Shown piece after piece: positions 9,808 through 14,136 of a stretch of 64,000 bases of DNA. The position numbers and the translations under genes are program-made. The notes beneath the pieces were generated by a model. That model was not told where the DNA came from. It worked only from the letters and a program-made list of their open reading frames with translations, and ran no database searches. This stretch comes from an uncultured Chloroflexia bacterium (GTDB lineage Bacteria; Chloroflexota; Limnocylindria; Limnocylindrales; CSP1-4). The DNA is taken from NCBI GenBank assembly GCA_963766735.1, contig CAVYBU010000007.1, positions 69,742 to 133,741 on the forward strand, in the 5' to 3' direction. Position 1 is the stretch's first letter. Each line of letters opens with the position of its first letter.

Positions 9808-10725
9808 TCAGCGGACCGGGCTGTGGGCCCAGGCCCCGAGCGGCAGGCGCGACCCGGCTCGGCTGTCGAGGGTCAGGGCCTCGCCGGTCGCCGGCACGCC
9901 GAAGTGCTCGCGGACGAGCGCCCCGAGTCGGTCCGCGTCGTAGCCTGGGGTGTGGGCGCTGAGCAGCACGAGCGAGGGGCGTGGCCCGACCAGGGCGGCC
10001 AGATCAGTCAGGAGCGGGCCCAGGTGGTCCTCGATCTGCCAGACACCCTCGCCGTGACCGTACGTGGGCGGATCCAGGACCACGCCGTCATACCGCCGGC
10101 CGCGGCGTCGTTCGCGCTTGACAAAGACCCGGGCATCGTCGATGAGCCAGCGGACCGGCTTGTCCGTCAGCCCGGACAGCTCCGCGTTGTGGCGGGCCCA
10201 CGCGACGGCGGGTCGCGACGAGTCCACGTGCGCGACGCGGGCACCCGCCCGGGCGCACGCCAGCGTGGCTCCACCCGTGTAGCCGAAGAGCGAGAGAACC
10301 TCCGGCGGGCGGCCGAGGCTCGCCAGCGCTGAACCCACGACCCGCTCAAGCCAGGTCCATGTGCCGGCATGCTCGGGGAAGACGCCCAGCTGGCCACCCG
10401 CCGCGGGACGGCACTCGAGGGTCAGCCCGCCGACCTGGACCGTCCATGGATCGAGGGCGGCACCGCGGACCCAGGCGCCCTTGCCCCACTTGAAGCTCGA
10501 GCGCTTCCACTCATCGGCAGGCAGCCGCTGGATCCAGTCTGCCGTCGGTGCGGGTCGGTCGACGATGGCCGCGCCGAATCGCTCCAGGCGCCGGCCGCCG
10601 CCACAGTCGAGAAGCTCGAGATCCGCCACGGCCCCATGGTCGCACGCATCGGCGATGGTTGGCACGAATTGCGGGTGCAACGGTGTCCACGACCGGGAGG
10701 TGGTGGCCGACACAGCGATCACCAC
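9808..10725 (-). CDS. class I SAM-dependent (rRNA) methyltransferase
   Basis: The track ORF 9808..11304 runs antisense through the tRNA-Val and the T-box. I trimmed it to the GTG at 10725, which is preceded by GGGAGA. A GYTGG ... VDSS ... DPP motif block is present. Confidence 0.65.
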   Translation of the reverse strand: MVIAVSATTSRSWTPLHPQFVPTIADACDHGAVADLELLDCGGGRRLERFGAAIVDRPAPTADWIQRLPADEWKRSSFKWGKGAWVRGAALDPWTVQVGGLTLECRPAAGGQLGVFPEHAGTWTWLERVVGSALASLGRPPEVLSLFGYTGGATLACARAGARVAHVDSSRPAVAWARHNAELSGLTDKPVRWLIDDARVFVKRERRRGRRYDGVVLDPPTYGHGEGVWQIEDHLGPLLTDLAALVGPRPSLVLLSAHTPGYDADRLGALVREHFGVPATGEALTLDSRAGSRLPLGAWAHSPVR

Positions 10726-10767
10726 CCGGGTCTCCCTCTCCGCGGTTCGTGGTATCTTCCCGGCCGA

Positions 10768-10844
10768 GGGCGATTGGCGCAGTTGGTTAGCGCGCATGCT
10801 TGACATGCATGAGGTCACTGGTTCGAATCCAGTATCGCCCACCA
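10768..10844 (+). tRNA. tRNA-Val (anticodon GAC)
   Basis: I folded a cloverleaf by hand. Acceptor stem GGGCGAT/ATCGCCC. D arm GCGC-AGTTGGTTA-GCGC. Anticodon stem CATGC/GCATG with loop TTGACAT (U33, anticodon GAC, A37). T arm ACTGG-TTCGAAT-CCAGT. Discriminator A and an encoded CCA. Confidence 0.9.
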
Positions 10845-10899
10845 TCCCCGGCCCTTGGGTCGAGGCATAGCGCGTCGAGCGGGACGCGCCCCACCGGGA

Positions 10900-11107
10900 C
10901 GTCGCCAGAGAGCGGGTGCCATCGGCTGCAAGCCCCGCAGACTCGACCGGTGGCGGCACCACCCGCGAGCGGCCGGTGAACCGGCCCGGGATCCGCCCGT
11001 TAGCGCGGCACGAGCGCACGTCGCCTGGCACCGGTGGCGTGAAGGCGGGTGGAACCGCGGGAGGTCGAACCTCTCGTCCTGTCAGGACGAGAGGTTCTGT
11101 GTTTCTC
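10900..11107 (+). promoter_or_regulatory. T-box riboswitch leader (probable Thr specifier) controlling thrS
   Basis: The conserved T-box elements occur in the canonical order. AGAGAG is at 10906-10911. The F box CCGTTA is at 10996-11001. The T box GGGTGGAACCGCGG is at 11047-11060. An intrinsic terminator follows at 11067-11107. ACC triplets at ~10957-10962 are candidate specifier codons. The element ends 14 nt before the thrS ATG. Confidence 0.8.
11067..11107 (+). terminator. intrinsic terminator of the T-box leader (GAACCTCTCGTCCTG-T-CAGGACGAGAGGTTC followed by TGTGTTTCTC)
   Basis: Perfect 15-nt inverted repeat followed by a T-rich tract. Its 5' arm can alternatively pair with the T-box sequence to form an antiterminator. 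Confidence 0.85.
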
Positions 11108-11120
11108 GGGAGCGTTGACG

Positions 11121-12975
11121 ATGGCTGAGGACAAGGCAGGAGCGGCGGTTGCCGCCGACGAGGATGAGATCGCGTTCGATGCCCCGGAGCGGGGCTCGGC
11201 GGACGAGCTGCTCGACGCGGGCGCCCACGCGCCCATCGACGCCATGCGGCACAGCACGGCGCACGTGATGGCCGAGGCCGTCCTGACGCTGTTCCCGGGC
11301 GCAAAGCTCGGGATCGGGCCGGCGATCGACAACGGCTTCTACTACGACTTCGAGCTGCCGCGCCCGCTCACGCCGGATGACCTCGCCGCCATCGAAGCCG
11401 GGATGCAGGGGAGCGTCGCCGCGGACCACGCCTTCGTGCGGCGCGAGGTCGCGTTCGACGAGGGCCGCGCCATCGAGGAGTCGGATGGCCAGGGCTTCAA
11501 GGTTGAGATCCTGGACGACCTCGCGAGCAAGGCGGCCGACGCGGCCGAGCCCCTGCCGCCGGTCACGTTCTACGAGCACGGCCCATTCCGCGACCTGTGC
11601 AAGGGCCCACACGTGGGGTCGACCGGCCACATCGGCCCGTTCAAGCTCCTGGCGGTCGCGGGTGCCTACTGGCGCGGGGACGAGAAGCGGCCGATGCTCC
11701 AGCGGATCTACGGCACCGTCTGGGAGACGCAGGACGAGCTGGACCTGTACCTGACCCGCCGCGAGGAGGCGAAGAAGCGCGACCACCGCAAGCTCGGCGC
11801 GCAGCTCGACCTGTACAGCTTCCACGACGTGTCGCCCGGGTCCGCGTTCTGGCATCCAAAGGGCCAGCGGATCTGGCGAACGCTGGAGACCGCGATGCGC
11901 GACCTGCAGGAACGCCGCGGATACGAGGAAGTGTCCACGCCGATCCTCGTCTCCGAGACGGCTGTGGCGCCAGTCCGGGCACTGGGACCACTACGCGGAC
12001 AACATGTTCATCGTCGAATCGGAGGGGCAGAAGTTCAGCCTCAAGCCGATGAACTGCCCTGAGTCCACGTATATCTACCGGAGCCACCTGCGCTCCTACC
12101 GCGACCTGCCGCTGCGTTTCAACGAGTACGGCCGGCTCCACCGCAACGAGCGCTCCGGCGCGCTCTCCGGCCTGACACGGGTGCGCCAGTTCATCCAGGA
12201 CGACGCCCACGTCTACGTGCGTCCGGACCAGCTGAGCGAGGAGATCGAGGCCCTGGTCGGTGAGGTCCGCGAGGCATTCGGATGGTTCGGGCTCAACCCG
12301 CGATTCGCGTTCGCCACGCGGCCCGACAAGGCGATCGGCGATCCTGCCCTGTGGGAGATGGCCGAGCGCCTGATCAAGGAGGCCCTCGACCGAACCGGCG
12401 GCGACTACGTCGTGAAGCCCAAGGACGGCACGTTCTACGCACCCAAGATCGACATCTACATCGACGACGCGCTCGGTCGGGAATGGCAGATGGCCACGAT
12501 CCAGGTTGACCTCACGATGCTGCCGGAGCGGTTCGACCTGACGTACATCGACGAGGACGGGCAGCCGAAGCGCCCGATGGCCATCCACCGGGCGATCTAC
12601 GGCTCGCTGGAGCGGTTCATCGGGATCCTGGTGGAGCACTTCGCCGGGGCGTTCCCGCTCTGGATCGCGCCCGTGCAGGCGGTGGTCATCCCGATCGCCG
12701 ATCGCCACGTGGACGCCGCGCGGGAGCTCGCCTCCGAGCTGCGCGCCGCGGGCGTGCGGTTCGTGGAGGTGGACGCATCCGACAACCGGATGCAGAACAA
12801 GATCCGTCTGGCCCAGGGTCAGAAGGTCCCGTACATGCTTATCCTCGGCGACCGCGAAGTGGAGGCCAGGACAGCGTCCATTCGCAGCCGCGACGGATCG
12901 CAGGAGCAGGGCGTTTCCTGGACGGACCTGGCCGTGCGCCTCGGTGACGAGATCCGGGAGCGGAGCCTGGGGTAG
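11121..12975 (+). pseudogene. thrS: threonine--tRNA ligase (TGS-less form) with reading frame broken by a single-base insertion near 11958-11962
   Basis: Track ORFs 11049..12062 (frame 0) and 12004..12975 (frame 1) together align colinearly with ThrRS. They cover the N2 domain (RHSTAHVMAEAV), the catalytic core (KPMNCPESTY ... RVRQFIQDDAHVY) and the anticodon-binding domain. The join reads ...[22 protein letters not shown] once one G is removed from ACGGCTG. Confidence 0.85.
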
Positions 12976-13165
12976 GGGAGGATGATCGCCGGAGCAGGCG
13001 TATCGGGGGGCTGACGGGCCCGACCGGGCGCCGGACGGGGAGGCCCCGTACCCCTCCCGTTCGTTGCGGGCGTTCGAACCCCTGTGCTATCCTCCCGCGG
13101 CGATTGCGCACGATATTTTGGTGTGCGCCGCAGTGCCCAAGTCATTCGAGCAGAGGGACCACGCC

Positions 13166-13843
13166 ATCAGTCGAGACCTGCGCATCAACCAGATGATCCG
13201 TGTCCCCCAGGTCCGGGTCCTCGACGAAGATGGCTCACAGCTCGGTGTCATGGCGACGCCGCAGGCCATGGAAATGGCACAGGAGCGGGGTCTCGATCTC
13301 GTCGAGGTCGCTCCCACGGCAGCCCCACCGGTTGTCAAGTTCCTCGACTATGGCCAGTACAAGTACGAGCTGACCAAGCGCGAGAAAGAGGCGAAGCGCA
13401 AGCAGCGCTCGGTGGAGTTCAAGGAAGTCCGCCTCTCGCCCAAGATCGGTATCGGCGATTTCGAGACCAAGGTTCATCGCGCAATCGAGTTCCTCGAGGA
13501 TGGCGACCGGATCAAGGTCACCGTCCGCTTCCGCGGCCGGGAGCTCACACATCCCGAAATCGGGAGGGCACTCCTTGCCAAGTTCGGCGAGGAGGTCAAG
13601 GAGCACGGGACCGTAGACCGGACGCCGGCACTCGAAGGCAAGTCCATGTTCATGACCCTGCTCTCGGTCCACAAGCCGAAGGTCCACGAGCACCGCAACC
13701 CGGCGACGACAGCCAAGGCGCCGACAGCCGAGGCGCGACAGCCGAGGCGCGACAGCGGACGCACCAACACCCGACGCACCAACACCCGACGCACCAACAC
13801 CGAAGGCCAACAAGCCGACGGTCAAGGCAGACACCGCACCTGA
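13166..13843 (+). CDS. infC: translation initiation factor IF-3 (non-canonical ATC start); 3' end uncertain
   Basis: The IF-3 core runs from ISRDLRINQMIRVPQVRVLDEDG to LSVHKPK. The ATC at 13166 sits 7 nt after AGAGGGA, consistent with the classic AUU/AUC autoregulatory IF-3 start. The 13064 track start lies upstream of the conserved N-terminus. A low-complexity tail may instead continue in another frame to 13930 (see findings). Confidence 0.8.
   Translation: MSRDLRINQMIRVPQVRVLDEDGSQLGVMATPQAMEMAQERGLDLVEVAPTAAPPVVKFLDYGQYKYELTKREKEAKRKQRSVEFKEVRLSPKIGIGDFETKVHRAIEFLEDGDRIKVTVRFRGRELTHPEIGRALLAKFGEEVKEHGTVDRTPALEGKSMFMTLLSVHKPKVHEHRNPATTAKAPTAEARQPRRDSGRTNTRRTNTRRTNTEGQQADGQGRHRT
13722..13802 (+). 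repeat. short tandem repeats in the infC 3' region: CGACAGCCGAGGCG x2 (13722-13749) and GACGCACCAACACCC x3 (13758-13802)
   Basis: Direct inspection of the sequence. The 15-nt unit preserves frame and encodes RTNTR x3 in the IF-3 frame or DAPTP x3 in frame 0. Confidence 0.8.
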
Positions 13844-13938: not shown

Positions 13939-14136
13939 GTGCCGAAGATGAAGACCCACAAGGGGACCCAGAAGCGAGTCGGGGTCACCGGCAGTGGGAA
14001 GTTCGTTCGCGTGAAGTCCTGGCGTGGACATCATCTCGAGCTCAAGTCGTCGCGCCGCACGCGTCGCTACGCGGGCAAGGCGGTCGTCGGCCCCGAGCAC
14101 CAGGAGCAGCTGCGCCGCCTGCTGCCGTACCTTTAG
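13939..14136 (+). CDS. rpmI: 50S ribosomal protein L35
   Basis: GTG start with GGAGAG 10 nt upstream. The translation MPKMKTHKGTQKRV ... LLPYL is typical of L35. It is hidden inside the long track ORF 13084..14136. Confidence 0.85.
   Translation: MPKMKTHKGTQKRVGVTGSGKFVRVKSWRGHHLELKSSRRTRRYAGKAVVGPEHQEQLRRLLPYL

Follow-up and report, generated by a model that had tools for sequence, protein, structure and literature searches.

The DNA between the end of a tRNA-Val(GAC) gene at position 10844 and the thrS start codon at 11121 carries, at 10866-11107 on the forward strand, what we take, with a probability of about 90%, to be a complete class I (transcription-attenuating) T-box leader that is specific for tRNA-Thr(GGU) and governs thrS and probably the downstream genes infC and rpmI. 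All positions refer to the window, the whole stretch of 64,000 nucleotides that was analysed. From 5' to 3', the leader, which lies in a region of about 72% GC, consists of Stem I closed by a K-turn, the specifier ACC followed by an A, with the AGAGA bulge and distal loop present, a short Stem II, a IIA/B pseudoknot with the F-box, Stem III, the T-box sequence, the antiterminator and the terminator. An earlier reading of this DNA from its letters alone (the sequence-only reading) had proposed a complete T-box with canonical element order in front of thrS, and this proposal is upheld: all elements were located in the sequence and aligned end to end to the Rfam model RF00230, and the interpretation as a threonine-specific, transcription-terminating T-box is supported by independent profiles, by covariation and by an ACC specifier matched to a threonyl-tRNA synthetase (ThrRS) gene.

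Detection and conservation of the leader

A search of the window at the Rfam gathering score, which for RF00230 is 93 bits and is an operational detection criterion rather than a structural feature, returned tRNA only and no T-box. Below that score, RF00230 aligns over the whole model (1-219) to 10866-11084 with 27.3 bits. The E-value is 3.8e-4 when 601 nt are searched and 0.04 for the window as a whole, in which there is no other sub-threshold match; the composition bias term is large (23.5). The RF00230 check suggested along with the sequence-only reading therefore gave no match at the gathering score and a full-length one beneath it, and the expectation that automated annotation would miss the leader was borne out, since 27.3 bits stand against the 93 required. 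We attribute the low score to the S-turn and Stem II deletions described below, to the 72% GC and to the bias term of 23.5.

Two reciprocal profiles were then used in nhmmer searches. The profile of six thrS leaders that pass Rfam, built from a MAFFT alignment alone and with the window sequence left out, matched the window at 10904-11104 (E=4.2e-9), and this was the sole match in the 128 kb searched (both strands of the 64 kb). A profile of 13 leaders, also built without the window, matched at 10906-11106 with E=6.1e-28. A covariance model built from five Limnocylindria-type leaders (the window's and those of loci L001, L003, L004 and L005, numbered as explained below) found 27 loci with a full-length leader ahead of thrS, the six Rfam-passing ones included. 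Within the window, no further T-box was found with this custom covariance model, a motif search or a sub-threshold RF00230 scan.

The loci used for comparison were collected with the repaired ThrRS as query, which gave 80 thrS loci (L-numbered). The nearest, L001-L005, have 75-78% amino-acid identity and belong to Chloroflexota MAGs labelled Ca. Limnocylindria or Limnocylindrales, in agreement with the lineage clue that had been drawn from the presence of a T-box before thrS. A T-box motif stands upstream of thrS in all five of them. The Limnocylindria leaders share a mean column identity of 78% with that of the window, and three of these orthologous leaders score 55.2, 42.9 and 27 bits with RF00230; six more distant thrS leaders, among them that of the cultured Chloroflexota Leptolinea tardivitalis, pass the gathering score with 93-119 bits.

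Covariation was assessed in a close-relative set made up of the window, L001, L003, L004 and L005. In this set 89.9% of the cells are paired, compared with 35-44% in slid controls, and double-sided changes occur at 13 of 57 pairs, distributed over the Stem I distal helix, Stem II, the IIB pseudoknot, Stem III and the terminator. A 35-row alignment of thrS leaders gave 95.2% paired cells (41-45% when slid) and compensatory changes at 41 of 43 modelled pairs, figures that lean towards the model, to which this alignment was fitted. Constrained folds of five orthologues have the same canonical layout, formed from different sequences.

Structure of the leader

Stem I spans 10872-10970 (99 nt) on the forward strand. 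That it folds with a Specifier loop, a point on which the sequence-only reading depended, was seen both in the RF00230 cmscan alignment and in the constrained folds of the five orthologues, and its base and distal helices covary. It is closed by a K-turn (GA motif) of the form GC / GUC / GA ... GA / GC at 10872-79 and 10966-70, in which GC 10872-73 faces GC 10969-70 and the tandem GA steps lie at 10877-78 and 10967-68; the K-turn is kept in five relatives, and the helices that flank it covary. The stem continues with the helices CGGG 10880-83 / CCCG 10962-65 and CCACCG 10891-96 / CGGUGG 10948-53, the AG bulge AGAGA at 10907-11, the distal helix 10912-17 / 10933-38 and the distal loop 10918-32. 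AGAGA and the distal loop, which contains GGCUGCAAG, correspond in the alignment to the AGAGA and GGUGaaA blocks of the model, and the helix that closes them covaries; by this sequence match, the two together are the predicted platform for the tRNA elbow. The AGAGAG motif reported earlier is thus present, at 10907-10912 and not at 10906-11.

In the middle of Stem I the MAFFT alignment is in error (43% paired), so the exact register there is uncertain, and constrained folds made for each orthologue give the same layout. A pairing of CGUCGCC (10900-06) with GGUGGCG (10949-55), which appears in the minimum free energy (MFE) fold of the window only, was not adopted, the constrained folds of the orthologues all being canonical with differing sequences.

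ACC triplets near 10957-62 had been put forward as specifier candidates, and the RF00230 alignment singles out 10958-10960 as the triplet in specifier position. This threonine codon, followed by the conserved purine A10961, lies at the 3' end of the Specifier loop, just before the CCCG strand of the CGGG/CCCG helix, a placement that agrees with the '+0' rule and frame of TBDB (PMC7778990). In each of the 26 thrS leaders that align in that region the specifier column reads ACC, and this codon stays fixed while the adjoining helix covaries (CGGG/CCCG, GGAG/CUCC, CAGG/CCUG, AAGG/CCUU, GAAG/CUUC, GCAG/CUGC). Codon and gene match, as ACC encodes threonine and the downstream gene encodes ThrRS.

The Specifier-loop S-turn (loop E, AGUA/GAA) is absent from the window leader, which has ACGCGCC on the 5' side and CGGCACCA on the 3' side in place of A(G)AGUA and GAA. 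At the S-turn sites, the Limnocylindria leaders have Watson-Crick CC/GG pairs, so that each side of the loop retains about 5 nt. The S-turn is likewise missing in L001 and L003-L005 and partly so in L019, L053, L063, L064 and L079, and it is present in most other thrS leaders. This element is common but not universal in T-boxes, and L019 passes Rfam nonetheless.

Stem I is followed by Stem II, a tetraloop hairpin of 16 nt, GGCCGG-UGAA-CCGGCC (10971-10986), with one compensatory change from G-C to A-U among close relatives and with neither S-turn nor purine string, although a review names the S-turn as the chief functional element of the Stem II domain (PMC7583486). Two thrS leaders that pass Rfam, L019 and L025, also have a short Stem II, and for this reason we regard the S-turn and Stem II differences of the Limnocylindria leaders as variants within the family and not as a new class. 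Stem IIA pairs CGG 10987-89 with CCG 10997-99, and the F-box CCGUUA occupies 10997-11002, one position downstream of where it had been placed before (10996-11001) and with the same letters, given then as CCGTTA. In the pseudoknot IIB, CCGC 10993-96 pairs with GCGG 11005-08, with a compensatory change from C-G to U-A in L005; as judged by eye, in most other thrS leaders the IIA loop remains complementary to the stretch that follows the F-box, with differing sequences. Stem III (11017-11041) is a 9-bp helix of CACGUCGCC and GGUGGCGUG around the loop UGGCACC, with compensatory changes at four of its nine pairs among 5 sequences and at all nine across the 35 rows.

Control of thrS and alternative readings

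The T-box sequence and antiterminator extend from 11046 to 11081 on the forward strand, with an evaluated energy of -15.4 kcal/mol. The T box GGGTGGAACCGCGG was found at 11047-11060 exactly as given earlier, and GGGUGGAACCGCG at 11047-59 is the sole exact match in the window to GGTGGNACCRCG. Helix A1 joins CGGG 11046-49 to CCUG 11078-81 and helix A2 joins 11057-65 to 11069-77; between them lies the 7-nt bulge UGGAACC (11050-56), of which UGGA (11050-53) is the predicted binding site of the tRNA acceptor end. The two helices are 100% and 93% paired in five relatives, but they are invariant.

The T-box sequence can also fold on itself at 11045-11058 (GCGG / CCGC around GUGGAA), and it does so in the window, L001, L003, L004 and L005; in thermodynamic predictions this hairpin rivals the antiterminator. 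An unconstrained RNAalifold run on the five close leaders proposed a long-range helix between CACCACCCGC in the specifier region and GCGGGUGG in the T-box. Its columns are almost invariant, and it was rejected because it is unsupported (a C-G/U-G change in one pair) and clashes with helices that covary.

The earlier claim that the acceptor end would meet a U discriminator 'as in tRNA-Thr' assumes what is an organism-specific trait and no general property. Neither the window nor any of the 80 thrS loci yielded a tRNA-Thr gene in ARAGORN scans. The UGGN bulge is UGGA in 23 of 27 thrS leaders, UGGU in 2 and UGGG in 2, and two of the five closest relatives, L002 (5-17) and L005 (2905-2917), have UGGG instead of UGGA, which needs a G-U wobble with a U discriminator. 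A bulge A and a bulge G can both pair only with U (A-U, G-U). The occurrence of UGGA and UGGG among close relatives would thus be consistent with U73, if these relatives share their discriminator.

The intrinsic terminator consists of a hairpin at 11067-11097 followed by the tail UGUGUUUCUC, which ends at 11107; it is evaluated at -25.7 kcal/mol and is kept in relatives. The sequence-only reading had described a 15-bp stem with a U-tract ending at 11107, and the end point holds, but the stem has 14 bp, formed by the arms 11067-11080 and 11084-11097 around a 3-nt GUC loop. The leader end at 11107 does lie 14 nt ahead of the thrS ATG at 11121, as had been stated. A terminator scan made two overlapping calls here, against 0.3 expected, and this is the sole such site in 10300-11500. 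Since the 5' arm of the terminator is the 3' strand of the antiterminator (11069-81 being common to both), the two structures are mutually exclusive. By the computed energies, the terminator (-25.7 kcal/mol) is predicted to be stronger than the antiterminator (-15.4 kcal/mol), which is the usual asymmetry that would tie read-through to tRNA.

Taken with established T-box biology (PMC7583486), from which we infer tRNA binding, the sensing of charging and termination, this arrangement suggests the following sequence of events. The nascent leader would fold Stem I, and ACC (10958-60) in the Specifier loop would pair with the GGU anticodon of tRNA-Thr, while the tRNA elbow would stack on the platform that the AGAGA bulge and the distal loop form in Stem I. 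Stem III, together with the short Stem II and the IIA/B pseudoknot, would place the 3' domain in position. With uncharged tRNA-Thr, the free NCCA end would pair with UGGA (11050-53) and stabilise the weaker antiterminator (11046-81), and RNA polymerase, with the antiterminator locked, would read through into thrS. With charged tRNA-Thr, the stronger terminator (11067-97 and the U-rich tail) would form, and transcription would halt 14 nt ahead of the ATG.

Other readings of the site have to be weighed against transcription attenuation. In a translational (class II-like) T-box, the 3' hairpin would be a sequestrator that hides the ribosome-binding site, an arrangement that one might expect at 72% GC and with a poor U-tract. 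The U-tract of the leader, UGUGUUUCUC, is indeed interrupted, the MFE fold lengthens the base of the hairpin by pairing GGGAG 11059-63 with UUCUC 11103-07, so that it ends beside the Shine-Dalgarno (SD) sequence, and high-GC Actinobacteria do have translational T-boxes (PMC7778990). However, neither of the two alternative hairpins includes the SD-like GGGAG (11108-12) or the ATG start codon of thrS (11121-23), and on this ground we consider a translational mode improbable. The class II features, an SD within the sequestrator and a truncated Stem I, are not those of the window: GGGAG stands 3' of the hairpin, in a GGGAG-N-ATG arrangement conserved in L003, L004 and L005, and Stem I, with its 99 nt, AG bulge and distal loop, is long as in transcriptional T-boxes. 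In addition, all five relatives have retained a U-rich tail although their GC content is about 70%, and the site passes the terminator scan. It could also be argued that this GC-rich DNA resembles a T-box by chance alone and that the hairpin at 11067-11107 does no more than terminate tRNA-Val, given that the Rfam match is sub-threshold, with E=0.04 at the scale of the window, and that the hairpin does stand downstream of a tRNA gene. We give this reading a negligible probability: chance resemblance is excluded by the recovery of the site with two profiles built without the window (E=4.2e-9 and 6.1e-28), and against it also speak the retention of the leader at the orthologous position in five genomes, the compensatory changes in nearly every helix and the fit of the ACC specifier to the downstream gene.

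There is also the state of the regulated gene to consider. The thrS gene (11121-12975, forward strand) encodes the Pfam tRNA_SAD, class II core and anticodon-binding domains, and its frame is broken: relative to L001, L002, L003 and L005, an extra 'a' at 11958, after GAG, shifts it from frame 0 (11121-11957) to +1 (11959-12975). Either the assembly is wrong here or the gene has very recently become a pseudogene, and if the extra base is real the regulated thrS may be non-functional. The T-box could then stand idle ahead of a decaying pseudogene while another ThrRS in the genome does the work, a reading for which one may cite, besides the insertion that splits thrS into two frames, the second ThrRS type (55% identity, without T-box motif) of the Limnocylindria assemblies L006 and L007. 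We think this quite unlikely, as all T-box elements are intact and near-identical to those of relatives with an unbroken thrS, the two halves of the gene, the extra base aside, show good conservation and give clean Pfam domains, single indels are frequent errors of assembly, and there is no second thrS in the window. Attenuation of thrS transcription in response to tRNA-Thr remains the preferred reading.

Gene context and place among known T-boxes

Downstream of thrS, and on the same strand, lie infC (about 13163-13843; Pfam IF3_N and IF3_C) and rpmI (13948-14136; Pfam Ribosomal_L35p), which were identified by Pfam and from their translations and form the usual thrS-infC-rpmI cluster. Pfam finds no TGS (N1) domain in the ThrRS; its HxxxH editing motif (HSTAH) comes as early as residues 44-48, and most homologues align only from about residue 40. 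In L006 and L007 (Limnocylindria/Chloroflexia), where the ThrRS is 55% identical to that of the window, no T-box motif was seen upstream, and the class may hold two ThrRS types.

An open reading frame on the minus strand (9808-11304) does run across the leader, as had been noted. Its matches to methyltransferase families (SAM-dependent methyltransferase-like) are confined to the 3' part, at about 9808-10728, and a likely start is a GTG near 10728, with GGAGAGGGAG upstream of it. Because of this distal position of the matches and of the GTG near 10728, we regard the 190 codons over tRNA-Val, the leader and the start of thrS as a spurious, high-GC artefact.

The tRNA-Val directly upstream of the leader, also noted before, was recovered both as an Rfam tRNA match (72.2 bits) and by ARAGORN; it is a tRNA-Val(GAC) with encoded CCA at 10768-10844 on the forward strand. 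The gap between its end and the T-box is 21 nt in the window, 6 nt in L005 and 13 nt in L035, and ranges from 6 to 61 nt in T-box-bearing Chloroflexota. The same order of tRNA-Val and leader is found in L001, L004, L005, L016 and L035, and tRNA-Val(GAC) lies directly upstream of thrS on the same strand in 22 of the 80 loci, from many phyla. In the lower-GC relatives L016 (2434-2463) and L035 (2547-2574), sigma-70-like promoters that match at 10/12 positions stand 10-12 nt upstream of tRNA-Val; they are the only sigma-70-like promoters found there, with none between the tRNA and the leader, and no terminator-like site lies between the two in the five cases examined.

Co-transcription of tRNA-Val, leader and thrS is the simplest reading that we infer from this arrangement. 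We see about even odds for a fuller version of it, in which the leader would have no promoter of its own and would make up the 3' trailer of the tRNA-Val(GAC) precursor transcript, the riboswitch terminator would double as the terminator of the tRNA gene, the 5' end of the leader would arise from tRNA 3' processing, and thrS-infC-rpmI would be driven by the tRNA promoter and then gated by the charging of tRNA-Thr. A candidate promoter within tRNA-Val itself, in which TTGACA of the anticodon loop is followed after 17 nt by TCGAAT of the T-loop, was rejected: the second position of its -10 element is not an A, and the sequence in relatives is TCGAGT. In the gap between tRNA-Val and leader, nucleotides 10849-10862 form a 5-bp hairpin with a CUUG loop (CGGCC-CUUG-GGUCG), whose counterpart in L004 is GGCC-UUCG-GGCC; having no U-tract, it is no terminator, and it could be a processing or 5'-end-protecting element. 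In L003, the region upstream of the T-box (about 500-590) has kept no more of a tRNA than its 3' half, with T-arm, 3' acceptor strand and CCA; neither ARAGORN nor Rfam calls a tRNA there, and this half may be a remnant of the tRNA-Val gene or of an integration event. A tRNA gene immediately upstream of a gene of the translation apparatus, with no promoter or terminator between them, is known from the E. coli thrU-tyrU-glyT-thrT-tufB co-transcript; in the window, by contrast, a riboswitch leader lies between tRNA and mRNA, and co-transcription is likely rather than established.

The window leader resembles the RF00230 class I T-boxes, such as the Bacillus subtilis thrS/thrZ and tyrS leaders, in (i) the order of elements from the K-turn to the 14-nt T-box sequence with its UGGN bulge, (ii) the competition between the antiterminator and a downstream terminator and (iii) a specifier, ACC plus purine, that fits the regulated aminoacyl-tRNA synthetase gene; it differs from them in its score (27.3 bits against 93), its GC content of about 72%, its Specifier loop without an S-turn and its 16-nt Stem II. 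The translational ileS T-boxes of Actinobacteria (Mycobacterium tuberculosis, Nocardia farcinica) share with it a high-GC host, a tRNA-sensing leader and the IIA/B pseudoknot; they have a truncated Stem I, a Stem II with an S-turn and a sequestrator that covers the SD (PMC7583486; PMC7778990), whereas the window leader has a long Stem I, a minimal Stem II and its SD outside the hairpin.

T-boxes are documented in Firmicutes, Actinobacteria, Chloroflexi, Deinococcus-Thermus and Geobacter (PMC3766115; PMC2494555), and Additional file 2 of Sun et al. 2013 (PMC3766115) lists threonine T-boxes on thrS for Herpetosiphon, Chloroflexus sp. Y-400-fl and Roseiflexus. The view that T-box control of thrS is typical of Firmicutes, Chloroflexi and Deinococcus is borne out in that listing for the first two, while a Deinococcus row in it shows glyQS and ileS only (PMC3766115). 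As described there, the Chloroflexi Thr regulon agrees with the window in phylum, amino-acid specificity and thrS target, and has a small gene (the Cagg_2512 orthologue) between T-box and thrS, where the window leader ends 14 nt before the ATG (PMC3766115). The host of the window differs in belonging to the class Ca. Limnocylindria, and its leader comes directly after tRNA-Val. Given the threonine T-boxes already recorded on thrS in the Chloroflexi entries of that study (PMC3766115), the window leader is an addition to a known family and not a new kind of T-box, and the understanding of the T-box mechanism is unchanged by it.

The value of the finding lies in annotation. Limnocylindria is an abundant, uncultured class of soil and freshwater Chloroflexota whose T-boxes fall under Rfam's threshold; because its five leaders score 27-55 bits or nothing against the 93 required, T-box regulation in this class is invisible to threshold-based pipelines, and a spurious antisense reading frame is liable to be called over leader and tRNA. 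The window also flags a probable tRNA-riboswitch-mRNA co-transcript, and the new sequences show that a threonine T-box is able to lack the S-turn in both the Specifier loop and Stem II.
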